Part shown: positions 1,007 to 23,973 of the stretch, piece after piece
Layout of the letters: the number at the start of each line of letters is the position of its first letter
Position numbering within the stretch: position 1 is the stretch's first letter
Source: Microgenomates group bacterium Gr01-1014_7
Lineage (GTDB): Bacteria; Patescibacteriota; Microgenomatia; Daviesbacterales; UBA10151
Assembly: GCA_007376405.1 (NCBI GenBank)
Contig: VMGD01000001.1
Coordinates: 2,891 to 66,890, forward strand
DNA length: 64,000 nucleotides
Reading direction: 5' to 3'
Translations under genes and position numbers: made by a program
Notes under the pieces: generated by a model
Databases searched by the model: none
The model's input: the letters and a program-made list of their open reading frames with translations, nothing else
What the model was told of the DNA's origin: nothing

Positions 1007-1012
1007 AACTCT

Positions 1013-2056: not shown

Positions 2057-2061
2057 ATAGC

Positions 2062-2089: not shown

Positions 2090-2097
2090 TCCAAACT

Positions 2098-7808: not shown

Positions 7809-7811
7809 CAA

Positions 7812-8780
7812 ATGAGCAATTTTTATAAAAGAAAAAAGGTTTTGGTAGCAGGCGGTACAGGAATGATTGGAATCTGTATGGTAAATAAACTTTTACAATA
7901 TGGTTGCGAAATCACCATTGCATCCTTAGAATCAAAAGAGTACGCAGAAAAATTATTTGGGAAAAAAGTTAGATTTATCCAAACTGATTTAACAGATTTT
8001 GAAAACTGTCTGAAAGTTACCAAGAAACAAGAGTTAGTTTTTAATCTTGTAGGAATTAAAGGATCCGTCGGTATAGGACAAACAAAAATAGCCAGCTTTT
8101 TAGTACCAATGCTTCGTTTTCAGACTAATTTAATGGACGCATCATTTAAAAATGAGGCAAAAGGTTTTCTGTTTGCCAGCAGTATTTGTGCATACCCACA
8201 ATCTGATAAACCTAAAACTGAGGATAGTGTTTGGGATGGACAACCGAAACAAAATGATCGCATCCCAGGTTTAGCCAAAAGAATTGGTGAGGTTCAAGGT
8301 GAGGCATATCTACATGAATTTGGTTGGAAGGCAGTCAAAATTGTCCGACCCTCTAATGTTTTCGGACCCTTTGACGATTTTAATCCAAATACAGCCCAAA
8401 TTATTCCAGCTTTAATTGCCAGGATGGTTGGCAGAGAAAATCCAGTGAAAGTTTGGGGGGATGGTTCTGCTATCAGAGATTTTATTTTTGTAGAAGATGT
8501 GGCAGATGGGATGCTTTTGGCGATGGAAAAAGCAAATCCTGCAGATCCACTTAATGTAGGGTCTGGTAAAGGAATAACTATAAAACAAATCGCTGAAACA
8601 ATCGCCAAAAATGTTCCTCAAAAACCTGAAATTGAATGGGATAAAACAAAACCCACCGGTGATCCATTCAGAATACTCTCTATGCAAAAAACAAAGAAGA
8701 TATTAAAATTTACACCAAAGTATACTCTAGAGGATGGAATTAAAAAAACTATTGGCTGGTACTTAAAAAATCGAGTATGA
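7812..8780 (+). CDS. GDP-L-fucose synthase-like (Fcl/WcaG family) NAD(P)-dependent epimerase/reductase, paralog 1
   Basis: VLVAGGTGMIG Rossmann motif, a SSICAYPQ catalytic region, and IVRPSNVFGPFDDFNPNTAQIIPALI...VWGDGSAIRDFIFVEDVADG align with the Fcl family ([21 protein letters not shown]...VWGSG...REFLHVDD). Confidence 0.8.
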   Translation: MSNFYKRKKVLVAGGTGMIGICMVNKLLQYGCEITIASLESKEYAEKLFGKKVRFIQTDLTDFENCLKVTKKQELVFNLVGIKGSVGIGQTKIASFLVPMLRFQTNLMDASFKNEAKGFLFASSICAYPQSDKPKTEDSVWDGQPKQNDRIPGLAKRIGEVQGEAYLHEFGWKAVKIVRPSNVFGPFDDFNPNTAQIIPALIARMVGRENPVKVWGDGSAIRDFIFVEDVADGMLLAMEKANPADPLNVGSGKGITIKQIAETIAKNVPQKPEIEWDKTKPTGDPFRILSMQKTKKILKFTPKYTLEDGIKKTIGWYLKNRV

Positions 8781-9208
8781 AAAATCCGAAAACTAACAAC
8801 CAAAGAGAATTTTTACCAACTTTTGCTGACTTAGTTGATACTCTTTCCATTGATCAGATCAAAGAGATTAAACTGAAAAATAAAGAAAGCTACGCTCAAG
8901 AAATGAACAAGATCTCGTATGATATTGATTTACTTATTAAAGAAAAGGATATCAAACCGTCTGCGAAACTGATCAGACTAGTAATTATAATTGCTCAAGT
9001 GAATCTTTTTATTTGGGAAAACAAGGATAAAATGAAACAAGATCCGAAACAATATGATAAGTTACTAAAATTATCCCATCAGTTAAATGGAATAAGAAAT
9101 AGAATGAAAAATCTATTACTTGAAGAAAGTGGCGAAAAAGAACCGAGCAAAAAAAGAACCAATATTGAAACTGAAGGTTTAAAAGGTTGGGAAAGCTCAC
9201 TTAAATGA
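8777..9208 (+). CDS. Hypothetical protein (143 aa, charged, probably helical)
   Basis: The ORF is translationally coupled on both sides (ATGA overlaps). I recognise no motif. Confidence 0.5.
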   Translation: MKNPKTNNQREFLPTFADLVDTLSIDQIKEIKLKNKESYAQEMNKISYDIDLLIKEKDIKPSAKLIRLVIIIAQVNLFIWENKDKMKQDPKQYDKLLKLSHQLNGIRNRMKNLLLEESGEKEPSKKRTNIETEGLKGWESSLK

Positions 9209-10311
9209 TCTTCCAAAAACTTGGTTCCTCTCAGACTACCGTTTCAGTGTTAGGTTTGGGGACTAATGGTGTTGGTAATTTTTATCAGCCAAACTTAACC
9301 AAGGTTCGTTCCCGACAAAAAATATATAAGACTGCTTTTGAAAACGGTCTGATCTTATTTGACAGTGCCGAGCTATATGGAGAGGGATACGCTGAATTTA
9401 TTTTGGGAAAGACTTTTTCTAGAAAAAGAGACCAAATAATTATTTCAACCAAAGTTAATCCTGATAATTGCAGTTCTTTTAGGTTAAGAAAATCCCTCAA
9501 AGATAGCCTTAAGCGGTTGCAGACAGATTATATAGATCTCTACCAGGTTCACTGGATTAACCCTTTTATTGATCTTGAAGAAACTTTTATTACTTTGGAG
9601 CAGTTTGTAAAAGAAGGCTACATTAAACATATTGGAGTCTGTAACTTTTCTCCATTAATGATCTCTCAAGCTAATAAGTTTTTAAATAAATATAAGATTG
9701 TTTCTAATCAGATTGAGTTTAACCTCCAAAGCCAATATCAAATGCTTAAAGATTTTCAATTTTATAAAAAAAACAATATTACTATTATTGGCTATGGTGC
9801 CTTAAATCATCTTAACTCATTCTCATCCCCAAAGCAGAAACAGCTTATGGAGTTTTTAACTAAAAAATATAAAAAAACTCTTTCCCAATTAATAATCAAC
9901 TATCTTACCTCTTTTAAAAATACTATCCAACTTATAAAAACAGATAATATTACCCATTTACAGGAAAATATTAGATCATTTGATTTTGAATTGGAAAAAA
10001 AAGATTTTGAAGAAATTAAAACAAATTTTTATTATCAAGTTCAGTTTGTCCCAGTTAAAAAAATTAAAATTGAAAACGAATTAAAAATTGACCGTTTCCA
10101 AATCCTACAAAATAGTGAAAACTTTATTCCCTCTCCCCTAACTATAGCTCAAACTCTTGTTAAATATGGTTTTTTTAAACCTTTGAAGTTAATAAAGAAA
10201 AACGATTTTTTTTATCTTGATTCTTATGATTTACAGGGGGAATATAAAAAATACCTGGCATGGAGATTAATTTATGATATATCAAGTCAAATTCCAGCAA
10301 TAGTTATCTAA
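9205..10311 (+). CDS. Aldo/keto reductase (AKR) with a ~95-aa C-terminal extension
   Basis: LGLGTNGVGNFY, FDSAELYGEGYAEFILG, IDLYQVHW and GYIKHIGVCNFS are canonical AKR motifs. It carries an extra C-terminal region shared with the downstream paralog (FFPSP...IPAIV). Confidence 0.85.
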   Translation: MIFQKLGSSQTTVSVLGLGTNGVGNFYQPNLTKVRSRQKIYKTAFENGLILFDSAELYGEGYAEFILGKTFSRKRDQIIISTKVNPDNCSSFRLRKSLKDSLKRLQTDYIDLYQVHWINPFIDLEETFITLEQFVKEGYIKHIGVCNFSPLMISQANKFLNKYKIVSNQIEFNLQSQYQMLKDFQFYKKNNITIIGYGALNHLNSFSSPKQKQLMEFLTKKYKKTLSQLIINYLTSFKNTIQLIKTDNITHLQENIRSFDFELEKKDFEEIKTNFYYQVQFVPVKKIKIENELKIDRFQILQNSENFIPSPLTIAQTLVKYGFFKPLKLIKKNDFFYLDSYDLQGEYKKYLAWRLIYDISSQIPAIVI

Positions 10312-10312
10312 A

Positions 10313-11422
10313 ATGAAATATAAAAATTTAGGGGGTACTAATGTAAAAATAAGCAGTATTGGTTTAGGTACAAATTTTAATCCCTACCATCCCGATACTA
10401 ATCAGAAATTAATCTCTCTTATGCAAGAAGCCTTAAATTTGGGTCTAAATTTTTTTGATTCGTCCGAACTTTATCTTAATGGAAACTCAGAAAAATTAAT
10501 AGGTCAGGCATTTAAAAAAAGAAGAGGTGAAGTCTTTATCTCCACCAAATTCTCTCCAGAAAATTGCAGTTACGAGAGGGTGGTTAAGTCTTGTGAAGCC
10601 AGTTTAAAAAGATTACAGACTGATTACATTGATTTATATCAAATCCACTGGCCAAATCCCATTATTCCTATTGAGCAAACTCTAAAAGCTTTAGAAAAAT
10701 TAAGAAAAGTTGGGAAAGTAAAATACATTGGCGTGTGCAATTTTTCTCTTAGACAATTAAAGCATATCCAAAAAGTATCTAAATTACCTATTGTCTCTTT
10801 GCAAACAGAATATAATTTACTTGAACGATCAATAGAATACGACCTACTCCCCTATTGCGAAAAAAATAAAATTACAATTATTGCCTATACACCTCTAAAT
10901 TCAGGTAATATTTTAAAAACAGAAAAATATTTAAAGATATTTTCAGATCTGTCTAAAAAATATAATAGAACTGCCTCCCAAATAATATTAAACTTTTTAA
11001 TATCCCACCCCACCGTTGTTGTTATACCTGCAACAGCCAACATCATTCATTTAGAGGAAAATGCAAAGTCTACTGAGTTTGTGCTGGAAAAAAAAGACAT
11101 TCAACTTCTCACAAAAACATTTACTACAAAAGTAATAAATATAGATACCGGAAAAATTAAGGTTACAACTATTCCCCACCATGCTGCATATAAAACAATT
11201 GAAGAAGCCTTAACAAATAAGTTAAACTTTTTTCCAAGTCCAAAGACACTTTCGGAAGATATCCAAAAAGGAGATTTTTTAAAGCCTGTTAGGGTAAAAG
11301 TTTTACAAAAAAAGAAAGGTGATTTTGAATATGAATTATTAGGTGGTAGAATACGCTATTGGGCATGGGTTATAGCTTACCATGGTAAAAAACCCATACC
11401 CGCTATAGTTGAAAATTCATAA
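10313..11422 (+). CDS. Aldo/keto reductase (AKR) with the same C-terminal extension, paralog 2
   Basis: IGLGTNFN, FDSSELYLNGNSEKLIG, IDLYQIHW, KYIGVCNFS, with a C-terminal FFPSPKTL...KKPIPAIVENS tail. Confidence 0.85.
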   Translation: MKYKNLGGTNVKISSIGLGTNFNPYHPDTNQKLISLMQEALNLGLNFFDSSELYLNGNSEKLIGQAFKKRRGEVFISTKFSPENCSYERVVKSCEASLKRLQTDYIDLYQIHWPNPIIPIEQTLKALEKLRKVGKVKYIGVCNFSLRQLKHIQKVSKLPIVSLQTEYNLLERSIEYDLLPYCEKNKITIIAYTPLNSGNILKTEKYLKIFSDLSKKYNRTASQIILNFLISHPTVVVIPATANIIHLEENAKSTEFVLEKKDIQLLTKTFTTKVINIDTGKIKVTTIPHHAAYKTIEEALTNKLNFFPSPKTLSEDIQKGDFLKPVRVKVLQKKKGDFEYELLGGRIRYWAWVIAYHGKKPIPAIVENS

Positions 11423-12184
11423 ATGCCAAAAAAAGATTTAACTAAAATTAAAGTATATAACAGTGAGCATGAAACCAAGATTAGACAACAAATTGTTGAT
11501 CTTTTAAAAAGTTGTCCTATTCCTGACGATCAATTGATGTCTAATTTAGGTCTATTTTTAAATTCTAAAAATTTATCCCGTATACTTTTTGTGGACCATA
11601 TCTTCAAACAAATTGTGGATATCCCTGGGGCTGTCTTTGAGTTTGGTACAAGATGGGGACAAAATATAGCACTCTTTTCAGCACTTCGGGGAACCTATGA
11701 CCCGTTTAACAGACACAGAAAAATTGTCGGATTTGATACCTTTACGGGTTTCCCGGAAATTAGCCCAAAAGATGGGGATTCAGAGATGATGCAAAAAGGA
11801 AATTTAACTTTAACAAAAAACTACTTTGAATATTTAACAAAAATTATGGAATACCATGAGCAAGAAAACCCGCTATCCCATATCAAAAAATATGAACTAA
11901 TAAAAGGAGATGTTAATTTAGAAGTTGTTAGATATTTCAAAAAACACCCAGAAACAATTGTGGCTTTGGCTTTTTTTGATTTTGATATTTATAAACCTAC
12001 AAAAAAATGTTTAGAGGCTATTAAACCACATTTAGTAAAGGGAAGTATTTTAGGTTTTGATGAACTAAATGATCCTGATTCGCCTGGTGAAACTTTGGCT
12101 TTAGATGAAGTTTTTGGGTTAAATAACATAAGGTTAAAAAGGTATAAGTTTACTTCACGTACATCATATTTTGTCGTTGAATGA
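11423..12184 (+). CDS. TylF/macrocin-O-methyltransferase-family SAM-dependent sugar O-methyltransferase
   Basis: GAVFEFGTRWGQN, IVGFDTFTGFP and ALAFFDFDIYKPTKKCLEAIKPHLVKGSILGFDE resemble the TylF-family signatures (VECGV..GGS; D.F.G.P; LDGDLYEST...GG.V..DD). Confidence 0.55.
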   Translation: MPKKDLTKIKVYNSEHETKIRQQIVDLLKSCPIPDDQLMSNLGLFLNSKNLSRILFVDHIFKQIVDIPGAVFEFGTRWGQNIALFSALRGTYDPFNRHRKIVGFDTFTGFPEISPKDGDSEMMQKGNLTLTKNYFEYLTKIMEYHEQENPLSHIKKYELIKGDVNLEVVRYFKKHPETIVALAFFDFDIYKPTKKCLEAIKPHLVKGSILGFDELNDPDSPGETLALDEVFGLNNIRLKRYKFTSRTSYFVVE

Positions 12185-12752
12185 ACTAGATAAAAAAATG
12201 GCTAAATTCTTTAAAACAAAATTAGAAGGTGTTTTACTTATTAAGCCTGAACCCTTTGAAGATTTTCGTGGAGAATATGTTGAAACATTTAATGAAAAAA
12301 TTTACTCTGAAGAAATTGCCAAGAATTTAAAAGGAACTATTTATCAAAAAGAAGCTTCAAGTTTGCATTTTGTTGAAGATGATATCTCAACCGGTAGTAA
12401 GGGTGTAATAAAAGGGATACATGGAGATACCAAAACCTGGAAACTGGTTCAATGTTTATTTGGAAAATTTTATCTGGTTGTATTAAATTACAACCCAAAA
12501 TCTAAAGATTATGGTAAGTGGGAAGCATTTACACTCTCAGACAAAAATAGACTTCAGGTTTTAATTCCGCCAATGTATGGTAATGGACATTTTGTCTTAT
12601 CTGAATATGATATATACCACTATAAACAGACTCCATACTACGATCCGGATAATCAATTTACTATTAAATGGGATGATCCAAGGTTTAAGATTTGGTGGCC
12701 AATAAAAAATCCAATACTATCATTAAGAGATGAAACCGTCAGAAGAGTGTAA
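12171..12752 (+). CDS. RmlC-like cupin: NDP-4-keto-6-deoxy-sugar 3,5- (or 3-/5-) epimerase
   Basis: KLEGVLLIKPEPFEDFRGEYVETF plus downstream histidine- and tyrosine-containing blocks (GIHGDT...LIPPMYGNGHFVLSE) fit the dTDP-4-dehydrorhamnose 3,5-epimerase fold. This matches RmlC and the C. jejuni DdahB/MlghB family. Confidence 0.7.
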   Translation: MSLNELDKKMAKFFKTKLEGVLLIKPEPFEDFRGEYVETFNEKIYSEEIAKNLKGTIYQKEASSLHFVEDDISTGSKGVIKGIHGDTKTWKLVQCLFGKFYLVVLNYNPKSKDYGKWEAFTLSDKNRLQVLIPPMYGNGHFVLSEYDIYHYKQTPYYDPDNQFTIKWDDPRFKIWWPIKNPILSLRDETVRRV

Positions 12753-13717
12753 TGAACCAATTTTTTGAAAAGAAAAAAGTACTGGTAGCAGGTGGTGCTG
12801 GTTTTATGGGTACTAACTTAATTTTAAAACTTCTTGAAAAAGGAGTAAAGGTTAGAGCAACAATCCATAAAAAACCTCCTCAAATTAAAAATTCAGAAAC
12901 TGAATTTGTAAAAGCTGACTTGACTAAACCATCTGATTGTAAAAAAGCTGTTGAAGGGGTTGATTATGTGTTTATGTGTGCTGCTAATACTTCAGGTGCA
13001 GCAGTAATTGAAAAAACTCCCCTTGCGCATGTGACCCCAAATGTAATCATGAATTCTTTAATGCTCGAAGCAGCTCATAAGGCAGGCGTTAAAAAATTTC
13101 TATTTATCTCAAGTAATACGGTTTACCCTTTAACAAATTACGCGGTTAAAGAAGATGATGTAAATTATGCTCTTTACGAGAAATACTTCCCGGTTGGGTG
13201 GATGAAGCTATTTAGCGAAAAAATGTGTGAAATGTACTCTACCAAAATTAAAAACTCAATGACAACCATAGTTGTAAGACCCGGCAACGTATATGGCCCT
13301 TATGATGATTTTGACTGGGAGAGTTCACATGTAATTCCTGCCCTAATTAGAAAAGCAGTAGAAAGACACAGCCCGTTAGAAGTGTGGGGTACAGGTTATG
13401 ATATTAAGGATTTTATTTATGTGGAAGACTTGGTAGAAGGACTAATTTTAGCAATGGAAAAAATTAACCAATTTGACCAAATTAATATTGGTGGAGGGGT
13501 ACCTATCACCATAAGACAAGTTTTAAAAGCAATTCTAAAAGCGGATAATTTTAGAAGCCCAAAAATTGTTTTTAACAGCTCAAAACCTACTATGATTCCT
13601 ATCCGATTAATTAATATAAATAAGGCTAGGAGGATTCTAGGCTTTACACCTAAAACTTCTTTAAAGATGGGTATCAAAAAAACAGTAGATTGGTATAAAT
13701 CATTAAGAAATGTCTAA
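12752..13717 (+). CDS. Fcl-like NAD(P)-dependent epimerase/reductase, paralog 2
   Basis: VLVAGGAGFMG, FISSNTVYP and VVRPGNVYGPYDDFDWESSHVIPALI...VWGTGYDIKDFIYVEDL show clear paralogy to the 7812-8780 gene product. Confidence 0.8.
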   Translation: MNQFFEKKKVLVAGGAGFMGTNLILKLLEKGVKVRATIHKKPPQIKNSETEFVKADLTKPSDCKKAVEGVDYVFMCAANTSGAAVIEKTPLAHVTPNVIMNSLMLEAAHKAGVKKFLFISSNTVYPLTNYAVKEDDVNYALYEKYFPVGWMKLFSEKMCEMYSTKIKNSMTTIVVRPGNVYGPYDDFDWESSHVIPALIRKAVERHSPLEVWGTGYDIKDFIYVEDLVEGLILAMEKINQFDQINIGGGVPITIRQVLKAILKADNFRSPKIVFNSSKPTMIPIRLININKARRILGFTPKTSLKMGIKKTVDWYKSLRNV

Positions 13718-14426
13718 TCCTTCAGAAATTTGTGTGGCAATTCTAGCGGGTGGGTTTGGAACTAGACTTCAATCAACAGTGAAGGGGAACCCTAAGGCCT
13801 TAGCAGAAGTTAGAAAGCACCCTTTCTTAGAATATTTATTGCATCAGTTGGATCAGGCTAATTTTAAAAAAATTGTTCTTTGTACAGGCTATTTAAGTGA
13901 TCAAATTGAGAAAACATTTGGAGAAAGGTATAAAAATCTGCGTCTTTATTATTCACCAGAACAACTGCCTTTAGGTACAGCAGGTGGTTTGAGAAAAGCC
14001 TTACCTCTCTTAAATTCAGAAAGTATATTAGTTATGAATGGAGATTCGTTTTGCGAGGTAGATTTTAAAAAAATTTGGCAGTTCCATTTAAATAAAAAAT
14101 CTAAAGCAAGTTTAGTTCTTTCATCAGTTTCTGATACCAGCCGTTTTGGAACAGTGAAGTTAGGAAAGAATGATAACATTATTGGATTCCAAGAAAAAAA
14201 AGGAGGAAGTGAAGCTGGACTTATCAATGCTGGAATTTACTTGATTAATAAAACTTTTATTGCAGAAATTCCTAAAGACAAAGAAATGTCATTAGAGAAA
14301 AATGTCTTCCCAAATTGGATAGGTAAAGGATTTTATGGATATAAAAGTAATAACAATTTTATAGATATAGGAATTCCTGAGAATTATGCTCAGGCTGAGC
14401 AATTCTTTGCTAAGTATCAATTATGA
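13710..14426 (+). CDS. hddC: D-glycero-alpha-D-manno-heptose 1-phosphate guanylyltransferase-like sugar-phosphate nucleotidyltransferase
   Basis: AILAGGFGTRLQS...PKALAEVRKHPFLEYLLHQL...LGTAGGL matches the HddC/GmhD-type nucleotidyltransferase N-terminus (LAGGLGTRL...PKPM..I.GKPFLEYL). Confidence 0.8.
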   Translation: MSNPSEICVAILAGGFGTRLQSTVKGNPKALAEVRKHPFLEYLLHQLDQANFKKIVLCTGYLSDQIEKTFGERYKNLRLYYSPEQLPLGTAGGLRKALPLLNSESILVMNGDSFCEVDFKKIWQFHLNKKSKASLVLSSVSDTSRFGTVKLGKNDNIIGFQEKKGGSEAGLINAGIYLINKTFIAEIPKDKEMSLEKNVFPNWIGKGFYGYKSNNNFIDIGIPENYAQAEQFFAKYQL

Positions 14427-14968
14427 AAAAAAAGAGATTTGTTTTACTTGATCGCGACGGTACAATAATTGTTGAAAAAAATTATTTATCAAATCCTGAT
14501 CATATTGAATTAGTTCCTGGAGCCGCGGATGTTTTAAAAAAGCTTAAGAAAGTGGGATTAGGACTGGTGATAATAACCAATCAGTCAGGGATAGGAAGAA
14601 AATATTTTGATTTAGCTACTCTTCGGAAAATCCATCAGAAATTGACAGATCTGCTCTTAAAAAATGGGGTAGTTTTAGATGATATTTATTATTGTCCGCA
14701 CACACCCGAAGATGACTGTTTATGTAGAAAACCAAAAACAAAACTGGTAGAACAAGCCAGAGATAAGCATAACTTTGATCCGAAGTTATGCTTTGTTATT
14801 GGTGACAATAAAGGAGATATTGAACTGGGAAAGAATATTGGTGCTACAACTATATTGGTTCGTACCGGCTATGGCAAACAAATAGAGAATGATGAATTAA
14901 GTCCTGATTATGTGGTTGATAATCTGGAAGCTGTACTGCCTATCATTAAGAATGAGCTCGCTTCCTAA
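14423..14968 (+). CDS. gmhB: D,D-heptose 1,7-bisphosphate phosphatase (HAD superfamily, histidinol-phosphatase-like)
   Basis: FVLLDRDGTI (the HAD DxDGT nucleophile motif), ITNQSGIGRKYF, and the C-x-C...CRKPK zinc-binding loop typical of GmhB. Confidence 0.85.
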   Translation: MKKKRFVLLDRDGTIIVEKNYLSNPDHIELVPGAADVLKKLKKVGLGLVIITNQSGIGRKYFDLATLRKIHQKLTDLLLKNGVVLDDIYYCPHTPEDDCLCRKPKTKLVEQARDKHNFDPKLCFVIGDNKGDIELGKNIGATTILVRTGYGKQIENDELSPDYVVDNLEAVLPIIKNELAS

Positions 14969-15968
14969 TTTTTGATCTTCTACTATTTTCATAAAAGACG
15001 TTATATCTTTTACCTAGATTATCCCTATTTTTCAAATACCACTCAATTGTTTCTTTAATACCCTCTTCTAATGAGTATTTTGGTTTAAAGCCTAATAATT
15101 TTTTGGCCCTGGTCATATCCATTAAGCGCTTAGCATCTCCTTTAGGTTTACTTTTATCCCAAACTATTTTTATTGGTCCATTAGGAACACTTTTGGCAAT
15201 CACTTCAGCAATCTGTTTGATAGTTACTCCTGATCCACTTCCTAGATTAACCGGTACATTGATTCCTTTTTCCACCGTTAGCATCATACCTTCCGCTACA
15301 TCTTTGGAATAAATAAAGTCCCTAATTGGTGAACCATCACCCCAAACAGTTAGGGGACTTTCTCCTGCCAAAGCTCGATTTATCAATGAAGGGATAACCA
15401 TAGCTGTGTTGGGATCAAAGTTATCAAAAGGACCATACGTATTTGCTGGTCTAACAATTGAGATCTTATCCCATCCATATTCAATCTTATAGGCTTCTGC
15501 TTGTAACTCCCCCATTCTTTTTGCCCATCCTGCAAATCGGTCATTTTCAGATGGAAAAGTTTTCCATACATCATCTTCATGAAAAATTTCAGCAAGTGCA
15601 TAGACACCTACAGTGCTAGTGTATAAGAACCTAGAAACCTCTTGACGGCGGGCAGCCTCCATCATATTGGTATTAAAAGTTATGGTGGGAACAAAAAAAC
15701 TTGCAGGTTGTTTTTGATTTAATAATGGAGATCCCTTAATACCAGCCAAATGGAAAACAATTTCAATACCTTTGCAAACATCCATACAATTACTAAATTC
15801 TCTTAAATCAGCCTTAATAAATTTAACCCCTTTAGGTGCCCGACTGGGATCATCTAAAGATACTACCACCACCTTAGCCCCTTCTTTAACAAGACCATCA
15901 ACTAAGGGTCTACCAATTAAGCCAGTCCCCCCTGTAATTAATATCTTTTTATTTTGGAAAAACTTCAT
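14946..15968 (-). CDS. Fcl-like NAD(P)-dependent epimerase/reductase, paralog 3
   Basis: ILITGGTGLIG and IVRPANTYGPFDNFDPNTAMVIPSLI...VWGDGSPIRDFIYSKDVAEG are very similar to the 7812-8780 product. The gene converges on the gmhB stop with a 23-nt overlap. Confidence 0.8.
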   Translation of the reverse strand: MKFFQNKKILITGGTGLIGRPLVDGLVKEGAKVVVVSLDDPSRAPKGVKFIKADLREFSNCMDVCKGIEIVFHLAGIKGSPLLNQKQPASFFVPTITFNTNMMEAARRQEVSRFLYTSTVGVYALAEIFHEDDVWKTFPSENDRFAGWAKRMGELQAEAYKIEYGWDKISIVRPANTYGPFDNFDPNTAMVIPSLINRALAGESPLTVWGDGSPIRDFIYSKDVAEGMMLTVEKGINVPVNLGSGSGVTIKQIAEVIAKSVPNGPIKIVWDKSKPKGDAKRLMDMTRAKKLLGFKPKYSLEEGIKETIEWYLKNRDNLGKRYNVFYENSRRSKIRKRAHS

Positions 15969-16972
15969 TTTTTTAAAGAATAATCTTCTTGCTGATCAAA
16001 AAAAATTATTTGAGAACCTGCACGCTCGAAGTTGAAAGGAACATGAATAAGTTTGTTAAATTTTTTTCTGACCTTAGCTTGATGGGATGGAGGAACAAAA
16101 AGTAGTATAAATCCTCCGCCACCTGCACCGATAATTTTGCCTCCAGTTGCACCCGCTGAGAGAGCATTGAGATATATGTCATCTATAAGGGAATTAGAAA
16201 CAGAGGAGCTTAGGGAGCGTTTAAGGCTCCAGGTTTCATGTAAGAGTTTACCGAAATCATTAATATCTTGTTTGCTGTTTAAAATGTTTAAAGCTTGATT
16301 AACCATTTCATTCATAGCAAAAAGTTGCTTTTCTTTTTGTTCGATATTTGGAATAAATGTTTTAGCTACATCGGACGCGGTACGGGCAATACCAGTATAA
16401 AAAAGCATTAAGTGATTTTCCAGGTCTTCAACACGTTTTGAAGGGATGGTAATTGGTTTAAGTGAAAAATTCCCATCTTTATGAAAGGTAATAAGATTAA
16501 ATCCTCCATAAGATGCTAACACTTGATCTTGTGATCCAACTGTTTCTTTAAGAACTCTTTGCTCAAGATAAATGCTTTCTTTGGCCAATCTATGTTTGTT
16601 TGGCATATGACCACCTAAAGCATACAAAGCGTGTAACAATCCTACTGTAAAGGCAGAGCTAGAACCTAATCCGCTGCGCCCTGGCAAATCCCCATCATAA
16701 TGAATTTCCACCCCTTGGCGAATTTTTAAAAAACGTATAACCTCACGAACAGAAGGATGGAGAATTTGATCAATGGTTTTGCAATTTTCAACTTTGGAAT
16801 ATGCAATCCTATATTTATATCCAAAAAAGGGGGGCATATACCTTGCATTGAGGTAACAATATTTATTAATTGTTGTTGCTAAAATCGATCCGCCATGTTT
16901 TTTATACCAAGCAGGATAGTCCGTGCCTCCACCAAAAAAAGAAATTCGAAAGGGGGTTCTGCTTATGACCAT
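15965..16972 (-). CDS. hddA: D-glycero-alpha-D-manno-heptose 7-phosphate kinase (GHMP kinase family)
   Basis: SRTPFRISFFGGGTDYPAWY...GGSILATTINKY...PGRSGLGSSSAFTVG...GGKIIGAGGGGFILLF match the HddA GHMP-kinase blocks. Confidence 0.85.
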   Translation of the reverse strand: MVISRTPFRISFFGGGTDYPAWYKKHGGSILATTINKYCYLNARYMPPFFGYKYRIAYSKVENCKTIDQILHPSVREVIRFLKIRQGVEIHYDGDLPGRSGLGSSSAFTVGLLHALYALGGHMPNKHRLAKESIYLEQRVLKETVGSQDQVLASYGGFNLITFHKDGNFSLKPITIPSKRVEDLENHLMLFYTGIARTASDVAKTFIPNIEQKEKQLFAMNEMVNQALNILNSKQDINDFGKLLHETWSLKRSLSSSVSNSLIDDIYLNALSAGATGGKIIGAGGGGFILLFVPPSHQAKVRKKFNKLIHVPFNFERAGSQIIFFDQQEDYSLKK

Positions 16973-17619
16973 GACTTACCTTTTTTACCAAAGAAATGAT
17001 GTTCTACCAACTCACATAATATGTGTTCAATGGCTATATGGGATTCTTGAATGTATTGAGTCATACTACTTGGAACACAAATAGCTACATCAGCCATTTT
17101 TTGTAGTTTACCACTGTTGCCAGTTAATGCTATTGTGCTTATATTGGCTGATTTTGCTGCTTTAACAGCAACAAGTATGTTTGAAGAATTACCGCTAGTG
17201 GAAATAGCAATCAAAAGGTCGCCAGGCTTGCCTAATGCTTGGACCTGACGTTTAAAGATATTTTCAAAACCTAGGTCGTTGGCGTGGGCTGTTAGAATAG
17301 ATGTATTAGTAGTCAAAGCAATGGCAGGAAAACCAGCTCTCTCAAATGTTTTGTTTAAAATACAAACAAATTCCCCAGCCATATGTTGAGAATCGGCTGC
17401 ACTACCGCCATTTCCACAAATCATTACTTTATTACCTGATTCGAATGTATCAACTATTAATTGGGCTGCTTCTAGAATTGATTCCAGACAATCCTCAGCC
17501 ACTTTTTTTTTAACCTGAGCACTTTCTATTAAGCGCTCTTGGACGAATTGGCGATGTTTATTGCTGATTTTAGTCATTATTTCTGGTAAGACTTTATCCC
17601 AGGAATGGGTAAATGTCAA
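16963..17619 (-). CDS. gmhA: Sedoheptulose-7-phosphate isomerase (SIS domain)
   Basis: VMICGNGGSAADSQHMAGEF...AIALTTNTSILTAHANDLGFENIF...ISTSGNSSNI align throughout with E. coli GmhA (CGNGGSHCDAMHFAEEL...ISTSGNSAN). The ORF-track start is a TTG. The true start may be the internal Met at about 17577. Confidence 0.9.
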   Translation of the reverse strand: MTFTHSWDKVLPEIMTKISNKHRQFVQERLIESAQVKKKVAEDCLESILEAAQLIVDTFESGNKVMICGNGGSAADSQHMAGEFVCILNKTFERAGFPAIALTTNTSILTAHANDLGFENIFKRQVQALGKPGDLLIAISTSGNSSNILVAVKAAKSANISTIALTGNSGKLQKMADVAICVPSSMTQYIQESHIAIEHILCELVEHHFFGKKGKSWS

Positions 17620-17655
17620 ATATAATAGCTCGACTTAGTTTAGGTAGAAGGAGGA

Positions 17656-19878
17656 ATGTGTTATTATTTGGTTTCGAAGGGACTAACAACAAAGATTACA
17701 TCTTACGATTATAAAATGACTTTTAAACGATTTTTTAAAGGTGAGCTCCTTTCACTTATTGTGATAATTTTAGTCTGTCTTCTTATTGTTTCGATTTGGT
17801 TTAAAGACGGCCTTATGTTTGCAGGAGGAGAGGATGTTATTTCTTTTTATAATCCCGACAGAGTATTTGATCTATTTTTTTATACTTGGAATCCACAAGA
17901 CAGTGGTACTCCCCAAATACAACTTTTAGCAAGAGTTCCTTACTTTTATGTAATAGAATTATTTTACAATTGGGGTATCCCAGGTTTGCTATTACAGGCA
18001 TTAACTTTTTTCTTGTTAATGTTGAGCGGAACATTAGCGATTTATTTCTTATTAAAAGAAACTCTTTCAAAAGATTTACCAGAAAATATGAAGAGTTCTG
18101 TACCAATTATAGGAAGTTTATTTTATCTTTTGAATCCTTATGCAATGTCTCAAATTTGGCTTAGAGGACTTTATAACCAATTTTTTTCTTTTGCCTTAGT
18201 GCCCATTTTCTTGTTATTTTTTGTACTTGGTTTAAATAGAAAAAAAATTGTATATGGACTAATAGCAGTCATATGCAGTTTTATTTTCTCTACAGGGTAT
18301 ACACATCCTGCTACTGTTATTACAACATGGGCAATTCCAATAATTTATCTAATTTTTTATTTCTTCAAATTTAAAAATAATGTTAAAAATATAACTTTTG
18401 GTTTGTTTTATATAATTACAATATTAATTCTTTGGTTTTTGGTGAATGCCTTTTGGATTTATCCGCTTATTGAGGTGGGGAAACAAGTATTTAGTTCCGC
18501 TCTAGATACATCTTTAACTAACAATATAGGGACCCTCCAGGGAGTAAGTAAAGATACTCCTATATTTACAGTGCTGAGGCTTTTACATAATGGATATTTT
18601 TTTAGAGGTTTATATTATGGAGACATTTATCTTAGTTTCCCTTTTATGCTTATAAGCTGGTTAATTCCCGCAGTTGCACTTTTTTCTTTTTCATTTTTTA
18701 AAAAAATGAGGTACTTTAAGTTTTATTTTTTTTCTTTGTTAATAGGTTTATTTGTAAGTTCTGGAGATAATCCCCCCTTAGGATGGCTTCTTATAGTTAT
18801 TCTTCAGTTAGTTCCATTGCTACAAGTATTTAGAAACCCATACGAGAAATTCGGTATCAATTTTTTAATAGCATATATACCCTTTTTTACAATAGGGCTT
18901 GTGATTGTATCTAACTGGTTTAAAGAAAAACTAAACTCTTCAAAGATTGCTAAGCTAATCCAATATTTTATAATAATTCTAATATGTGGAATTTTCGTTT
19001 GGCCAATGTGGACCGGCAAATTTGCGGTAAAACCCTATGTAAACCCTTGGATTAAAGTCCCTAGCTATTATAAATTAGCAGATAATTGGTTAATGGAACA
19101 GAATGGAGATTTTCAAATCTTTCAGTTACCCCTTACTGCGGGAGACGGTATCAGATATACATGGAGGAATCCTTTCCAAGGCCTAGAACCAAGTCATTAT
19201 TTTTTTCAAAAGCCTTCAATTAGAACAGGATATTTTTTTAATAATAGTTATTATGCTCCCATAGGCGAGCAATTCGTTAATTTACGAGAAGGAGAGAAAA
19301 TAAAATATGTTACTAACAATAGAGAAGTTTTGGATAAAAATAAAATAATTGAAGGCCTATCTTTTTTAAATATTCGATATATTATTTTGCATAATGATGT
19401 TGATTATAAATTTAGCTCATCGCCATCACCTGATCAAATTAGAGAATATCTTAATAAACAGGATAAAATAAAATTTGTAAAAAAATTTGGAGAGTTAGAA
19501 GTTTATGAAATTGAGACATCCAAAAATTTAAGTGTAGTTTATTCTCCGGATGCTGAAATTGAGACTTCAAAGAAAAATCCTACTTTGTATAAAATATATG
19601 TTAAAAATGCTAAAGAAGAAATTAACCTATATTTTCTTCAAACATTTAACCCAGGATGGGAATTATCCTTAGATAACCAAGTGGTTACTAAACACGAAAA
19701 AGTGTTTTCCTATGCTAACGGTTGGAAAATTAATAAGTTAGGAAATTATACACTCACTTTATCATATAAACCTCAACAGTTTGTTTATTTAGGATTTAAA
19801 ATTTCTCTTATTAGTTTGATTATAGTATTAATAGTAATAATTATTATTCCCATATGGAAAAAAGTAAAAAATATATGA
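17656..19878 (+). CDS. Large polytopic membrane protein, member 1 of a six-paralog uncharacterised GT-C-like family
   Basis: About 12 hydrophobic segments, an acidic loop motif after TM1 (GGEDVISFY), and a ~250-aa C-terminal soluble domain followed by a terminal TM. The start is ambiguous. The ATG at 17656 sits only 1 nt after a GGAGG, so the Met at 17716 (MTFKRFF) may be the real start. Confidence 0.5.
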   Translation: MCYYLVSKGLTTKITSYDYKMTFKRFFKGELLSLIVIILVCLLIVSIWFKDGLMFAGGEDVISFYNPDRVFDLFFYTWNPQDSGTPQIQLLARVPYFYVIELFYNWGIPGLLLQALTFFLLMLSGTLAIYFLLKETLSKDLPENMKSSVPIIGSLFYLLNPYAMSQIWLRGLYNQFFSFALVPIFLLFFVLGLNRKKIVYGLIAVICSFIFSTGYTHPATVITTWAIPIIYLIFYFFKFKNNVKNITFGLFYIITILILWFLVNAFWIYPLIEVGKQVFSSALDTSLTNNIGTLQGVSKDTPIFTVLRLLHNGYFFRGLYYGDIYLSFPFMLISWLIPAVALFSFSFFKKMRYFKFYFFSLLIGLFVSSGDNPPLGWLLIVILQLVPLLQVFRNPYEKFGINFLIAYIPFFTIGLVIVSNWFKEKLNSSKIAKLIQYFIIILICGIFVWPMWTGKFAVKPYVNPWIKVPSYYKLADNWLMEQNGDFQIFQLPLTAGDGIRYTWRNPFQGLEPSHYFFQKPSIRTGYFFNNSYYAPIGEQFVNLREGEKIKYVTNNREVLDKNKIIEGLSFLNIRYIILHNDVDYKFSSSPSPDQIREYLNKQDKIKFVKKFGELEVYEIETSKNLSVVYSPDAEIETSKKNPTLYKIYVKNAKEEINLYFLQTFNPGWELSLDNQVVTKHEKVFSYANGWKINKLGNYTLTLSYKPQQFVYLGFKISLISLIIVLIVIIIIPIWKKVKNI

Positions 19879-20810
19879 AAAAAGAAAAAAAATTAGTCTC
19901 TGTAGTAATTGTAACAAGAAACAGAAAAAAGGATTTAATTGAGTGTTTAGACTCATATATTAAATCATCATATAAAAATACAGAAATTATAATTTTGGAT
20001 AATGCATCCATAACTCCCGTTTCATCATGGTTACCTAAGAAGTACAAAGGAATAGAAATTATAACTACTGTCAAAAATATTGGTGCAGCTGAGGGTAGAA
20101 ATAAAGGATTTAGTAAATCTAGCGGTTACTATATTGTATTTAGCGATGATGATGCAGTAGCTGATGCCTTGATGGTAGAGAAATTAGTCTCAGTATTTGA
20201 GAATCATAAAAATGTCGGAATAGTTCAACCATTAATATATGAAAAGAATAAGAAAAAATTATTACAAGGTGCTGGTCATAATATTGATCTAACAACTGGC
20301 AGAATTAGTGCTTGGGGTGTTAGAGAAAAGGATATAGGGCAATATGATGGGCTTAGAGAAATACCGATGGTTGGATGTGCTTGGATGGTAAGAAGAGATG
20401 TTTTTGAAAAAGTTAAAGGTTTTGATAAAGATTACTTTATCCCGTATGAAGATTCTGATTTCTCTTTTAGAGTTAGTAAGGCTGGTTTTAAGGTATACTG
20501 TTATTCGGATGCTAAAACTTGGCACAGAGGTCTTAAAGATACATTTATTCACCCATGGATTGAGTGGTTGGGTATTACTTCTTCAGATAGAGCGTATAGA
20601 ATTGCAAGGAATAAGATGATTTTTATTCGCAAGCACTCATCTAACCATCAAAAAATTATTTTCTTCTTTTTTTTATTACCGCTTTATACATTTATTCACT
20701 CATTAATAATTATGGCATCAGCTCGATTTGATATTTTGTACAAGTATTGGCTAGGAGTTTTATCAGGTATTTGGTATAGTTTAATGTATTCTTTTAAAAA
20801 GTTTACATAA
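19854..20810 (+). CDS. GT2-family glycosyltransferase with C-terminal membrane anchor
   Basis: VSVVIVTRNRKKDL...IIILDNAS...FSDDDAVAD (a DxD-type block) and C-terminal hydrophobic helices. Confidence 0.75.
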   Translation: MEKSKKYMKKEKKLVSVVIVTRNRKKDLIECLDSYIKSSYKNTEIIILDNASITPVSSWLPKKYKGIEIITTVKNIGAAEGRNKGFSKSSGYYIVFSDDDAVADALMVEKLVSVFENHKNVGIVQPLIYEKNKKKLLQGAGHNIDLTTGRISAWGVREKDIGQYDGLREIPMVGCAWMVRRDVFEKVKGFDKDYFIPYEDSDFSFRVSKAGFKVYCYSDAKTWHRGLKDTFIHPWIEWLGITSSDRAYRIARNKMIFIRKHSSNHQKIIFFFFLLPLYTFIHSLIIMASARFDILYKYWLGVLSGIWYSLMYSFKKFT

Positions 20811-20831
20811 TGACTCCTTTTTGTGGATAGT

Positions 20832-21659: not shown

Positions 21660-21661
21660 TA

Positions 21662-23972: not shown

Positions 23973-23973
23973 C

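Follow-up and report, generated by a model that had tools for sequence, protein, structure and literature searches.

A general route to branched sugars is ThDP-dependent branching with subsequent reduction by NAD(P)H (PMC9306805). One source of the branch is an E1 alpha/beta pair, which gives NDP-4-keto sugars a pyruvate-derived two-carbon unit (PMC4802897). The two-carbon units of paulomycose and eurekanate are attached by such PDH-E1-like pairs, while for yersiniose the unit is added by YerE and the side-chain carbonyl is reduced by YerF. Heptoses also occur outside LPS, as Gram-positive S-layer glycans, capsules and flagella use GDP-D,D-heptose (PMC5387315).

We analysed a window of 64 kb, the whole stretch of DNA available to us, whose proteins are deposited under Microgenomates group bacterium Gr01-1014_7 of the Patescibacteria group. 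This agrees with a preliminary description that had called the genome CPR-like. Positions 1013-17619 of the window form a single conserved sugar-nucleotide cassette of ~17 kb. Its product, judged by the parallels with paulomycin, avilamycin and yersiniose, is likely a two-carbon-branched or chain-extended, O-methylated 6-deoxyheptose, and not a plain one. We regard the cassette and the steps proposed below, taken together, as the best explanation, with slightly better than even confidence. From the cassette we predict that a tiny uncultivated CPR bacterium bears an unusual cell-surface sugar not described so far.

Extent and conservation of the cassette

Between 1013 and 14968 the genes are packed into a tight operon with intergenic gaps of -17 to +41 nt. 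The gmhB gene (+) ends at 14968 and a minus-strand SDR gene ends at 14946, which reproduces the 23-nt convergent overlap (14946-14968) reported earlier. The tailoring genes had been assigned to the same operon. This holds for the dehydratase unit, but the third Fcl-like gene sits with hddA and gmhA in the unit that converges on it. The overlap is not kept in the Daviesbacteria locus L002, where a gap of ~28 nt was found.

The arrangement is not random. Two other MAGs, from Levybacteria (L003) and Daviesbacteria (L002), carry the complete set in synteny at 60-90% amino-acid identity. The cassette core was also seen in metagenome loci with 26-64% GC. The CalS11-like gene served as the anchor for all of these, so that counts of co-occurrence among them are biased. 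Loci with an E1 alpha of ~60% identity keep the dehydratase, E1 alpha/beta, TktN/TktC, an AKR, the 251-aa methyltransferase, an SDR, the cupin and an SDR. Two variants carry additions to the core, namely a YerE/ALS-type TPP enzyme and a PanB-like gene in L004, and a B12 radical-SAM enzyme in L006.

The remainder of the 64-kb island encodes many GT2, GT4 and PMT_2/GT-C enzymes and a flippase. One gene adjoins the cassette, and its membership is uncertain:

17656-19878 (+): GT-C (AftD-like) membrane glycosyltransferase (PF11847, E 1.6e-9)

It was not seen in L002 or L003, both of which stop short of that position.

Predicted GDP-heptose formation and dehydration

In the proposed pathway GDP-heptose would first be made and then dehydrated, two steps in which we have good confidence. 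The genes involved are:

16963-17619 (-): GmhA, sedoheptulose-7-phosphate isomerase (top NCBIfam NF010546, 200 bits; TIGR00441, 188 bits; both below their cut-offs)
15965-16972 (-): HddA-like D,D-heptose-7-phosphate kinase, GHMP type (NCBIfam HddA, 151 bits; cut-off 600)
14423-14968 (+): GmhB, heptose-1,7-bisphosphate 7-phosphatase (PRK08942, 172 bits; cut-off 178)
13710-14426 (+): HddC-like D,D-heptose-1-phosphate guanylyltransferase (top NCBIfam HddC, 162 bits; cut-off 300)
2098-3090 (+): GDP-heptose 4,6-dehydratase homologue, an extended SDR (best PDB match 7US5)

NCBIfam and PDB matches agree with the preliminary description on the identity and position of gmhA, hddA, gmhB and hddC. None of the four products reaches its NCBIfam equivalog cut-off, and they are therefore divergent members. 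GmhA has the catalytic and zinc-binding motifs CGNGGSA...QHMAGE, ISTSGNS and IQESH, and its true start is likely Met15 (~17577). The solved structures nearest to the kinase are D,D-heptose kinases (3k85, WcbL 4usk and C. jejuni 4n3o, ~120 bits), compared to 66 bits for fucokinase. GmhB matched GmhB entries best (4pnh, 108 bits; 3l8e, 100 bits). The top match of the HddC-like enzyme was Yersinia pseudotuberculosis HddC (5xhw/6jq8, 121 bits), compared to 95 bits for the ManC-type mannose-1-P guanylyltransferase. The pathway had been considered noteworthy because the lineage lacks LPS. This argument is weak, as GDP-D,D-heptose also serves Gram-positive S-layer glycans, capsules and flagella (PMC5387315), and GDP-heptose in an LPS-free organism is in itself no surprise.

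The gene at 2098-3090, earlier described as Gmd/Rmd-like, was found in its place and its reading as a heptose 4,6-dehydratase was strengthened. Its product is 46.6% identical over 337 columns to 7US5, the C. jejuni GDP-D-glycero-D-manno-heptose 4,6-dehydratase (303 bits, E 2.5e-89), compared to 218 bits for Rmd (2pk3) and ~140 bits for Gmd. It carries the motifs SSSEVYG and SPYAVSK. This strong homology suggests that it would yield GDP-6-deoxy-4-keto-D-lyxo-heptose. All steps proposed after the dehydratase draw on gene context and analogy.

Candidate genes for two-carbon branching

Half of the operon went unmentioned in the preliminary description: the GT10 transferase gene and seven others, namely the six below and the 312-aa putative methyltransferase listed in the next section.

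3083-4057 (+): TPP-dependent dehydrogenase E1 alpha-like subunit, proposed two-carbon donor (PF00676, E 1.7e-50; TIGR03182, 253 bits; cut-off 394)
4041-5105 (+): E1 beta-like subunit (PF02779 and PF02780; NF006667, 295 bits; cut-off 321)
5105-5926 (+): split transketolase-like enzyme, N-terminal (PP) half (PF00456, E 5e-39; NF004559, 259 bits; cut-off 488)
5923-6873 (+): split transketolase-like enzyme, C-terminal (Pyr + C) half (best PDB match 6yaj)
9205-10311 (+): aldo-keto reductase 1, proposed side-chain ketoreductase (PF00248, E 5e-54, residues 16-272 of 368)
10313-11422 (+): aldo-keto reductase 2 (PF00248, E 7.5e-65)

These seven genes are co-operonic and co-conserved, and other genomes carry them together with the dehydratase, which makes a plain 6-deoxyheptose an unlikely end product. 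Of the sugar predicted earlier, a possibly O-methylated 6-deoxyheptose, the parts that depend on the dehydratase and the methyltransferase are supported.

Context and precedent suggest that the 4-keto intermediate would not simply be reduced. Like the pairs that build paulomycose and eurekanate, and in the position of YerE in the yersiniose pathway, the translationally coupled E1 alpha/beta subunits may decarboxylate pyruvate on TPP and add a two-carbon unit to the sugar carbonyl. We lean slightly towards this E1-mediated branching. The E1 alpha gene overlaps the dehydratase gene by 8 nt, across its stop codon, and the E1 alpha/beta pair directly adjoins the dehydratase in nine of the 11 informative related loci. 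L002 and L003 encode an E1 beta with 87-88% identity. Nowhere in the 64-kb window was an E2, an E3 or a lipoyl protein found. Where E1 alpha/beta sit elsewhere, three loci (L020, L026 and L040) have another transketolase-like pair.

The split transketolase-like enzyme would probably add a second, glycolaldehyde-type two-carbon unit, with the ketone or an oxidised carbon of the side chain as acceptor. Residues corresponding to H26, H66 and H100 of E. coli TK are present in its N-terminal half, and its C-terminal half is closer to the split TK of C. hydrogenoformans (6yaj, 123 bits) than to DXS (~96 bits). The sugar-hydroxyl and TPP residues are retained in the C-terminal half. E. coli TK binds phosphate through four residues, among them H461 and R520 (PMC11387542). 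The former is replaced by Gly in all 38 cluster-associated homologues and the latter by Lys in 28 of 39 homologues. Phosphate binding may nevertheless survive, judging from the sequence, since R358 never varies, Thr usually replaces S385 (Met in the window) and Lys is the most frequent residue at R520. We see a tailoring role for the pair as an evenly balanced proposition. The pair often follows hddA directly, and in L048, L061 and L065 it occurs with heptose-activation genes and no dehydratase within 10 kb, a pattern that a dedicated supply of sedoheptulose-7-phosphate would explain equally well.

The aldo-keto reductases would reduce the carbonyls that branching leaves in the side chain, as YerF does for yersiniose. 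The two proteins are 39.7% identical and both bear a C-terminal extension of ~95 aa. A TktN-TktC-AKR-CalS11-like block recurs in many loci. L002 has a single AKR for two TPP systems, which counts against the branching model.

Proposed epimerization, methylation and transfer

The remaining genes of the cassette are:

12198-12752 (+): RmlC-like cupin, predicted C3/C5 epimerase of the 4-keto sugar (PF00908, E 1e-39)
7812-8780 (+): Fcl-like SDR paralogue 1 (NCBIfam Fcl, 168 bits; cut-off 500)
12752-13717 (+): Fcl-like SDR paralogue 2 (NCBIfam Fcl, 161 bits)
14946-15968 (-): Fcl-like SDR paralogue 3 (NCBIfam Fcl, 156 bits)
11423-12184 (+): CalS11-like (TylF superfamily) NDP-sugar O-methyltransferase (Foldseek; named 'CalS11' by the depositor)
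6870-7808 (+): 312-aa putative class I SAM methyltransferase (weak Pfam Methyltransf_25/Methyltransf_31, E 0.04-0.12; GVGSG motif)
8777-9208 (+): 143-aa helical protein (single-sequence AF2 model, pLDDT 65.7)
1013-2056 (+): GT10 (fucosyltransferase-like) glycosyltransferase (PF00852, E 1.2e-15, 58 bits)

The cupin, the three Fcl-like SDRs and the TylF-type methyltransferase all lie where the preliminary description had placed them. C3 and/or C5 may be epimerised by the cupin, whose best PDB matches are the C. jejuni GDP-heptose 3,5- and 3-epimerases (114 bits), marginally above dTDP RmlC (~102 bits), in line with its earlier reading as an epimerase. The protein has His, Lys, Tyr and Asp motifs. 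The gene caller starts the gene at 12198; the start given earlier, 12171, is that of the longest ORF.

The Fcl-like SDRs may fix the stereochemistry that is still to be set, and reduce C4 in the absence of a branch there. They had been described as reductases that could yield several stereoisomers. Fcl-like SDR genes they are, but the catalytic Tyr is absent from all three, as it is from C. jejuni MlghC, and their scores against the C. jejuni heptose reductases are no better than those against Fcl, GME or GalE. The missing Tyr leaves the reduction steps uncertain. Paralogue 1 matched GDP-fucose synthase best (7ll6, 130 bits) and keeps the Cys109 equivalent, with RIPGLAK as its Tyr motif. Paralogue 2 (E. 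coli Fcl, 120 bits; GME, 105 bits) keeps the His179 equivalent and has FPVGWMK. Paralogue 3, 50.8% identical to paralogue 1, matched T. maritima GalE best (4zrm, 127 bits; Fcl, 120 bits) and has RFAGWAK, with neither the Cys109 nor the His179 equivalent. In related loci the types of paralogues 2 and 3 and the cupin between them recur as an invariant block, an arrangement that suggests that they act in sequence and not as alternatives.

The GDP-sugar would then be methylated by the CalS11-like enzyme, and perhaps also by the 312-aa protein, which is conserved in L002, L003, L006 and others. That O-methylation occurs at the nucleotide-sugar level is fairly probable. The earlier O-methyltransferase reading is now narrowed to a CalS11-type NDP-sugar enzyme, as the top Foldseek match was CalS11 itself (3tos, E 2e-24, TM 0.75, 40% identity), obtained with a weak model (pLDDT 59.8). 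Pfam TylF and Methyltransf_24 were sub-threshold.

The 143-aa protein had no Pfam match and no PDB fold match at E<=0.001. Its gene recurs in a block with Fcl1 and an AKR in L006, L009, L016, L023, L024 and L077.

Finally, a GT10-like enzyme may move the finished GDP-sugar into a cell-surface glycan, which the rest of the 64-kb island would assemble. GT10 enzymes use GDP-fucose as donor, and the GT10-like enzyme is a candidate transferase for the GDP-linked product. Its gene precedes that of the dehydratase by 41 nt and is syntenic in L002 (65% identity).

Layout of the cassette and heptose activation

The cassette consists of a plus-strand operon of 16 genes (1013-14968; intergenic gaps of -17 to +41 nt) and, tail to tail with it, a minus-strand unit of three genes (14946-17619). 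The 23-nt convergent overlap reported in the preliminary description was borne out, as the operon ending at 14968 meets the minus-strand unit from 14946. A promoter and terminator scan of positions 1-20000 returned 73 promoters (84 expected from shuffled sequence) and 11 terminators (11.5 expected). Because neither count exceeded the shuffled expectation, the scan left the operon boundaries uninformed. Rfam and tRNA scans of the window gave no matches and so no taxonomic marker. The deposited annotation of the cassette is generic, and the preliminary description passed over the pyruvate dehydrogenase (PDH) E1 alpha/beta pair, the N and C halves of a split transketolase-like enzyme (TktN and TktC), the 312-aa and 143-aa proteins, the two aldo-keto reductases (AKRs) and the GT10 gene.

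Genes of the cassette
First gene of the plus-strand operon: GT10 (fucosyltransferase-family) gene, from Pfam
2098-3090, plus strand: dehydratase, from its match to 7US5
3083-5105, plus strand: homologues of PDH E1 alpha and E1 beta, from Pfam and NCBIfam; E1 alpha overlaps the dehydratase gene by 8 nt
5105-6873, plus strand: split transketolase-like pair, TktN and TktC
7812-8780, plus strand: Fcl-like paralogue 1
Between the dehydratase and methyltransferase genes: 312-aa protein, weakly resembling class I methyltransferases
Between the dehydratase and methyltransferase genes: 143-aa helical protein
Between the dehydratase and methyltransferase genes: two AKRs, each with a C-terminal extension of about 95 aa
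11423-12184, plus strand: TylF-like/CalS11-like methyltransferase
Gene-caller start at 12198: RmlC-like cupin (PF00908)
12752-13717, plus strand: Fcl-like paralogue 2
13710-14426, plus strand: HddC, best match Y. pseudotuberculosis HddC
14423-14968, plus strand: GmhB, best PDB matches GmhB structures
14946-15968, minus strand: Fcl-like paralogue 3
15965-16972, minus strand: HddA, best solved relatives three D,D-heptose kinases
16963-17619, minus strand: GmhA, top NCBIfam match at 200 bits; true start likely near 17577

The four enzymes of heptose activation, GmhA, HddA, GmhB and HddC, are all present and clustered, as previously described, and the nearest characterised relative of each is the matching heptose enzyme. 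They were the top NCBIfam matches of the four proteins, at scores below the equivalog cut-offs (GmhA 200 of 276, HddA 151 of 600, GmhB 172 of 178 and HddC 162 of 300 bits), so the assignments denote the closest characterised family and not curated orthology. Sequence divergence of this degree is common in CPR bacteria. Among solved structures, HddA scored about 120 bits against D,D-heptose kinases versus 66 against fucokinase, HddC 121 bits against its Y. pseudotuberculosis counterpart versus 95 against mannose-1-phosphate guanylyltransferase (ManC), and GmhB 100-108 bits. The zinc-binding and catalytic motifs of GmhA are present. The same four activation enzymes are used in the capsular heptose pathways of C. 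jejuni and in the DmhA/DmhB system of Y. pseudotuberculosis.

The dehydratase, an extended short-chain dehydrogenase/reductase (SDR), aligned end to end with 7US5, the C. jejuni GDP-D-glycero-D-manno-heptose 4,6-dehydratase (DdahA/WcbK), with 46.6% identity (303 bits, E-value 2.5e-89). Its scores against Rmd (218 bits) and Gmd (about 140 bits) were lower, and both the Ser-x-Glu motif (SSSEVYG) and the YxxxK motif (SPYAVSK) are present. No other single observation supports the predicted 6-deoxy-4-keto-heptose intermediate as strongly as the 7US5 match. Judged by homology, the heptose part of the cassette is a divergent member of the C. jejuni/Yersinia GDP-6-deoxyheptose system (PMC10680097, PMC7949155), whose C. 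jejuni version resides in a Gram-negative pathogen and not, as here, in a CPR bacterium. The sole indication that the nucleotide is GDP comes from the GDP-type relatives of the dehydratase, of the SDRs and of the GT10 enzyme.

TPP-dependent enzymes and tailoring enzymes

The E1 alpha and beta homologues scored below the NCBIfam PDH E1 cut-offs, and the whole 64-kb window was found to encode no E2, E3 or lipoyl protein. Branching by such a pair has direct precedent: on the way to paulomycose, eurekanate and kosinostatin, PDH-E1 alpha/beta pairs working alone load a two-carbon chain derived from pyruvate onto C4 of an NDP-4-keto-deoxysugar (PMC4802897). By gene content these systems (Plm8/Plm9 for paulomycose, AviB1/AviB2 for eurekanate, and that of kosinostatin) resemble the cassette, with a stand-alone E1 alpha and beta, no E2 or E3, and a deoxysugar cluster containing a 4,6-dehydratase, a 3,5-epimerase and an O-methyltransferase. 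However, they act on dTDP-2,6-dideoxyhexoses in secondary metabolism, whereas the acceptor presumed here, a GDP-4-keto-6-deoxyheptose, would end up in a cell-surface glycan.

Yersiniose, erwiniose, caryophyllose and gastriose exemplify a general scheme in which a ThDP enzyme of the YerE type acylates an NDP-4-keto-deoxysugar and an NAD(P)H-dependent reductase of the YerF type then reduces the side chain (PMC9306805). The close coupling of E1 alpha/beta to the dehydratase, together with the downstream AKRs, is consistent with this scheme. The likeness lies in the logic: YerE is a flavoenzyme of the ALS family, whereas the window encodes E1 alpha/beta and a transketolase-like enzyme, its reductases are AKRs and not YerF-type, and the yersiniose-type scaffold is a CDP-3,6-dideoxyhexose in place of a GDP-heptose.

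Both transketolase-like halves scored below the NCBIfam transketolase cut-off, and TktC scored almost as high against DXS as against transketolase. The pair keeps the TPP and metal motifs and, as residues contacting the donor and the sugar hydroxyls, the equivalents of H26, H66, H100, D469 and H473, as found in E. coli TktA and in the split transketolase of C. hydrogenoformans (6YAJ), the latter also sharing the N/C architecture. The four phosphate-binding residues of the E. coli enzyme are R358, S385, H461 and R520 (PMC11387542). At these positions the window TktC has R, M, G and K, and the full canonical phosphate-binding set was not found in the window pair. The position of H461 is Gly in 38/38 cluster-associated homologues, that of R520 is mostly Lys and that of S385 is variable, which, together with its place in a sugar-nucleotide operon, sets the pair apart from canonical transketolases. 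With H461 lost and mostly Lys at R520, two of the four phosphate binders are changed, and we accordingly favour a reaction in which a glycolaldehyde-type two-carbon unit passes to a carbonyl of the GDP-sugar. On balance, we give the pair an even chance of being a sugar-tailoring enzyme; a role in supplying sedoheptulose-7-phosphate is possible and less probable.

The C-terminal extensions of the two AKRs (about 10021-10311 and 11117-11422) are related to each other, both carrying F-x-P-S-P and IPAIV motifs, and neither had a Pfam match. AKRs of related loci are of similar length (358-378 aa). The 143-aa protein, in a helical single-sequence model, had no meaningful PDB fold match (best E-value 1.5).

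The cupin of the preliminary description is indeed present, with its start placed by the gene caller at 12198 and not at 12171. It matched PF00908 (E-value 1e-39), and the motifs GIHGD, WKLVQ, YHYK and LRDE were spotted by eye; the defining residues of such cupins are a His-Asp dyad, a Lys and a Tyr (PMC7949155). Among solved structures it scored highest against the C. jejuni GDP-heptose 3,5-/3-epimerases (DdahB/MlghB/Cj1430), by the narrow margin of 114 bits versus 102 for dTDP RmlC.

The three Fcl-like SDRs fall in the Fcl/GME/GalE neighbourhood of the PDB, with 120-130 bits to each, and none is nearer to the C. jejuni heptose reductases (DdahC, MlghC, Cj1428) than to Fcl, GME or GalE. We aligned their residues to an E. 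coli Fcl sequence whose numbering reproduces S107, C109, Y136, K140 and H179 of PMC7949155. Where the Ser-Tyr-Lys triad (S107, Y136, K140) has its catalytic Tyr, paralogues 1, 2 and 3 have Pro, Val and Ala, respectively. The Cys109/His179 dyad is incomplete too: paralogue 1 has the Cys alone, paralogue 2 the His alone and paralogue 3 neither. Both patterns were repeated in about 50 homologues from related loci (L002-L077), which form three conserved SDR classes. Loss of the Tyr was considered as disqualifying these proteins from a reductase role, and this was rejected on the precedent of MlghC, a family member from C. jejuni that has Phe136 in its place and is proven to reduce heptose at C4 (PMC7949155). 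MlghC differs in having Tyr at position 109, where the cassette SDRs have Cys, Thr or Gly. The family assignment of the preliminary description stands, whereas its view of the three proteins as reductases that could give several stereoisomers is unproven, given the missing Tyr and the lack of closeness to heptose reductases.

The TylF-like methyltransferase was confirmed as a TylF-type class I fold with clear homology to CalS11, the name also used by the depositors. CalS11 is the calicheamicin TDP-rhamnose 3'-O-methyltransferase (3TOS, 5HOQ), and Foldseek placed it first (3tos, E-value 2e-24, TM-score 0.75 over 242 columns, 40% identity), followed by the methyltransferases TylF, MycF, SpnH and NovP. 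The query model was of low confidence (pLDDT 59.8, pTM 0.62, shallow alignment), and we used it because its top match also has 40% sequence identity. The protein scored below the Pfam gathering thresholds of TylF (17.7 vs 23 bits) and Methyltransf_24 (20.3 vs 26.3 bits), and weak Methyltransf_24 matches were found in 17/18 of its homologues. The CalS11 match makes it plausible that the sugar is methylated while bound to the nucleotide, which would presumably be GDP on a different sugar, unlike the TDP sugar of CalS11. Several homologues (P0131, P0145, P0148, P0237 and positions 14977-15732 of L087, an Azospirillum plasmid locus) are annotated in NCBI as 'crotonobetainyl-CoA--carnitine CoA-transferase'. 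Considering the 40% CalS11 identity and the TylF-type fold, this label looks like a propagated misannotation.

Related loci

A Candidatus Levybacteria MAG (L003) contains the whole cassette with its order kept and with amino-acid identities of 60-90%, and so does L002 (CAZYBP010000001.1; 60-87% identical to the window). The L002 record is titled 'uncultured Gammaproteobacteria bacterium' and its proteins are named Candidatus Daviesbacteria. We rejected the title as an argument against a CPR origin in view of these protein names; it is probably a taxonomic mislabel.

More distant relatives, on contigs of 540-580 kb and with about 60% identity in E1 alpha, keep a core order of dehydratase, E1 alpha, E1 beta, TktN, TktC, AKR, 251-aa methyltransferase, SDR, cupin and SDR. 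One variant (L004) inserts a TPP enzyme of the YerE/acetolactate-synthase type (11989-13716), so that a YerE-type enzyme is actually present in a related cassette, and a PanB-like gene of the ketopantoate hydroxymethyltransferase family (19951-20880). Another (L006) inserts a B12-binding radical-SAM enzyme (13764-15683). Across related loci, the cupin gene lies between genes of the Fcl3 and Fcl2 types in a fixed block, and genes of the Fcl1 type accompany those of the 143-aa protein and an AKR. These groupings suggest that the SDR types have distinct sequential roles.

The metagenome set comprised 80 loci, all anchored on a CalS11-like gene, which biases the following co-occurrence counts. The block of TktN, TktC, AKR and methyltransferase recurs across these loci, and E1 alpha/beta lie directly beside the dehydratase in 9/11 informative loci. 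Four loci carry two transketolase-like pairs, and a second pair takes the position of E1 alpha/beta in L020, L026 and L040. When loci of 12 kb or more are counted, 17/21 with a transketolase-like pair also had heptose genes or the dehydratase, versus 2/9 without one (Fisher p = 0.004, subject to the anchoring bias). The pair often directly follows hddA, including in the dehydratase-less loci L043, L047, L048, L061 and L065; L048, L061 and L065 combine it with heptose-activation genes and have no dehydratase within 10 kb. In most related loci large enough to judge, the dehydratase co-occurs with hddA, hddC, gmhA or gmhB. Since the loci span 26-64% GC, the cassette is not confined to CPR bacteria.

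In the plasmid collection the full cassette was found in no cultured organism, so no known glycan structure can be linked to it. Acetoanaerobium has the CalS11-like methyltransferase alone. Plasmid p5 of Azospirillum argentinense Az39 (L087, 48336-63413) carries a split transketolase-like pair, a cobalamin-dependent protein, a methyltransferase, an HddC-like protein and a CalS11-like protein (52% identical). Because its host is a cultured alphaproteobacterium, the plasmid might offer convenient experimental access to the part of the cassette that comprises the transketolase-like and methyltransferase genes.

Predicted product and the surrounding glycan island

We tentatively propose that the cassette makes a GDP-6-deoxyheptose with one or two TPP-installed two-carbon units (branched or chain-extended, C9-C11), reduced and O-methylated. 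Such a product would be a new class of nucleotide-activated higher-carbon sugar. In this proposal a GDP-keto-heptose is the direct substrate both of the E1 pair and of a previously uncharacterised transketolase-like subfamily marked by Gly at H461, and the cassette, widespread in uncultivated bacteria of many phyla, decorates the CPR surface. Sedoheptulose-7-phosphate would be converted to GDP-heptose and then to GDP-6-deoxy-4-keto-heptose, both stages resting on good homology. E1 alpha/beta would add the pyruvate-derived chain to this GDP-4-keto-deoxysugar, and the transketolase-like enzyme a glycolaldehyde-type two-carbon unit to a GDP-sugar carbonyl. The AKRs would reduce the side chain as in the ThDP-branching scheme, the cupin would epimerise, and the SDRs would reduce and set the stereochemistry before O-methylation. 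The GT10-like enzyme would transfer the finished sugar.

A simpler product is conceivable, if somewhat doubtful: one or more stereoisomers of a plain, possibly O-methylated GDP-6-deoxyheptose, as in C. jejuni, with the transketolase pair supplying sedoheptulose-7-phosphate from pentose phosphates and the E1 pair and AKRs auxiliary or unrelated. The dehydratase, cupin, Fcl-like SDRs and O-methyltransferase are indeed the C. jejuni toolbox (PMC10680097), and the enrichment of transketolase-like loci in heptose genes or the dehydratase, as well as the position of the pair after hddA even where the dehydratase is missing, is in line with a supply role. So are the conserved donor-binding His residues and R358 equivalent, and the basic residue still found where R520 would be. 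The enzyme classes listed for C. jejuni (PMC10680097) include no E1 alpha/beta, transketolase-like pair or AKRs. Against the plain product, it leaves without a function both E1 alpha/beta, whose genes overlap that of the dehydratase and stay next to it across divergent lineages, and the AKRs lying between the transketolase-like pair and the methyltransferase. Against mere supply of sedoheptulose-7-phosphate stand the constant AKR and methyltransferase neighbourhood of the pair, the family-wide Gly at H461, and the loci with two pairs, three of which have the second in place of E1 alpha/beta. Moreover, cassette variants gain further enzymes that form C-C bonds (YerE-like, PanB-like and B12 radical SAM).

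It is improbable that the dehydratase and tailoring enzymes instead work on GDP-mannose, giving a rhamnose-, talose- or fucose-type 6-deoxyhexose, perhaps branched, while the heptose genes feed a separate unmodified heptose in the same glycan. Such a route would agree with the secondary resemblance of the dehydratase to Rmd and Gmd, with the HddC-like protein scoring 154 bits against the NCBIfam mannose-1-phosphate guanylyltransferase model and 162 against HddC, and with CalS11 acting on a 6-deoxyhexose, TDP-rhamnose. GT10 enzymes, too, are users of GDP-fucose. The C. jejuni heptose enzymes are weakly active on mannose substrates (PMC7949155). Yet the cassette enzyme matches the heptose dehydratase far better than any other, the window contains no phosphomannomutase, phosphomannose isomerase or separate ManC, and the dehydratase is mostly accompanied by heptose-activation genes. 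Despite generic family assignments and annotation, it is very improbable that E1 alpha/beta and transketolase are pyruvate/acetoin dehydrogenase and pentose-phosphate genes placed in the island by chance, as they score below the respective cut-offs, lack E2 and E3 in the window and overlap sugar genes in positions kept across loci of 26%-64% GC, and the TCA cycle is generally absent in Patescibacteria (PMC11665869).

What appears to be new is the conserved joining of a heptose 4,6-dehydratase with two TPP-dependent systems forming C-C bonds, AKRs and a CalS11-type methyltransferase. The searched literature contained no description of this combination, and nothing relevant on transketolase in heptose, capsule or O-antigen clusters. 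The host lineage is not known to have LPS, from which the preliminary description drew part of its interest. GDP-heptose in such a host is not surprising in itself, because GDP-D,D-heptose is already known from the S-layer glycan of an LPS-less Gram-positive (PMC5387315). That system likewise builds a surface glycan via GDP-heptose, but no deoxygenation or branching of its heptose is described. For CPR bacteria and heptose, the sole mention in our literature search was an ADP-heptose module in Paceibacteria in a CPR survey (PMC9166423). Even if the plain 6-deoxyheptose is the true product, the cassette would provide a clear C. jejuni-type pathway in Patescibacteria.

CPR bacteria live attached to host cells and devote a large share of their tiny genomes to surface structures, and to our knowledge almost nothing is known about their glycans. 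The cassette offers a concrete, testable prediction for them, a heptose-derived, deoxygenated, two-carbon-branched and methylated sugar. We know of TPP-dependent sugar branching only on dTDP- and CDP-deoxyhexoses, in actinomycete antibiotics and some LPS/LOS; if correct, the branched-heptose proposal would extend it to GDP-heptoses and to primary cell-envelope biosynthesis. The large uncharacterised transketolase-like subfamily and the Tyr-less Fcl-like SDRs are also candidate biocatalysts.

The remainder of the window is likewise entirely glycan-related, with GT2 and GT4 enzymes, five PMT_2 GT-C enzymes, a flippase, sugar C-methyltransferases and more SDRs. Five large ORFs of 551-659 aa (24381-26360, 29007-30662, 31642-33411, 33971-35767 and 41785-43707) had no Pfam match at E-value ≤1e-4. 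A second deoxysugar module on the minus strand (20832-24360) contains an FdtA/WxcM-like cupin (23974-24360), a TylC3-type sugar C-methyltransferase (22725-23972), an SDR (21662-22771) and a class I methyltransferase (20832-21659), which suggests a separate C-methyl-branched sugar in the same island. Another TylC3-type C-methyltransferase (35768-37090) is followed by an SDR (37026-38009) and a GT2 gene (38006-38713) in a minus-strand stretch at 35768-38713. A UDP-glucose/GDP-mannose dehydrogenase (38841-40112) and RmlD (40904-41773) are also encoded, and a DUF5667 protein lies mid-island (43709-44236, minus strand). The five PMT_2-type paralogues (48894-50621, 55655-57298, 57240-58850, 59637-61217 and 61214-62869), a PIG-V-like mannosyltransferase (52670-53830) and an AftD-like GT-C enzyme (17656-19878) form an unusually dense set of lipid-linked-sugar-dependent enzymes.
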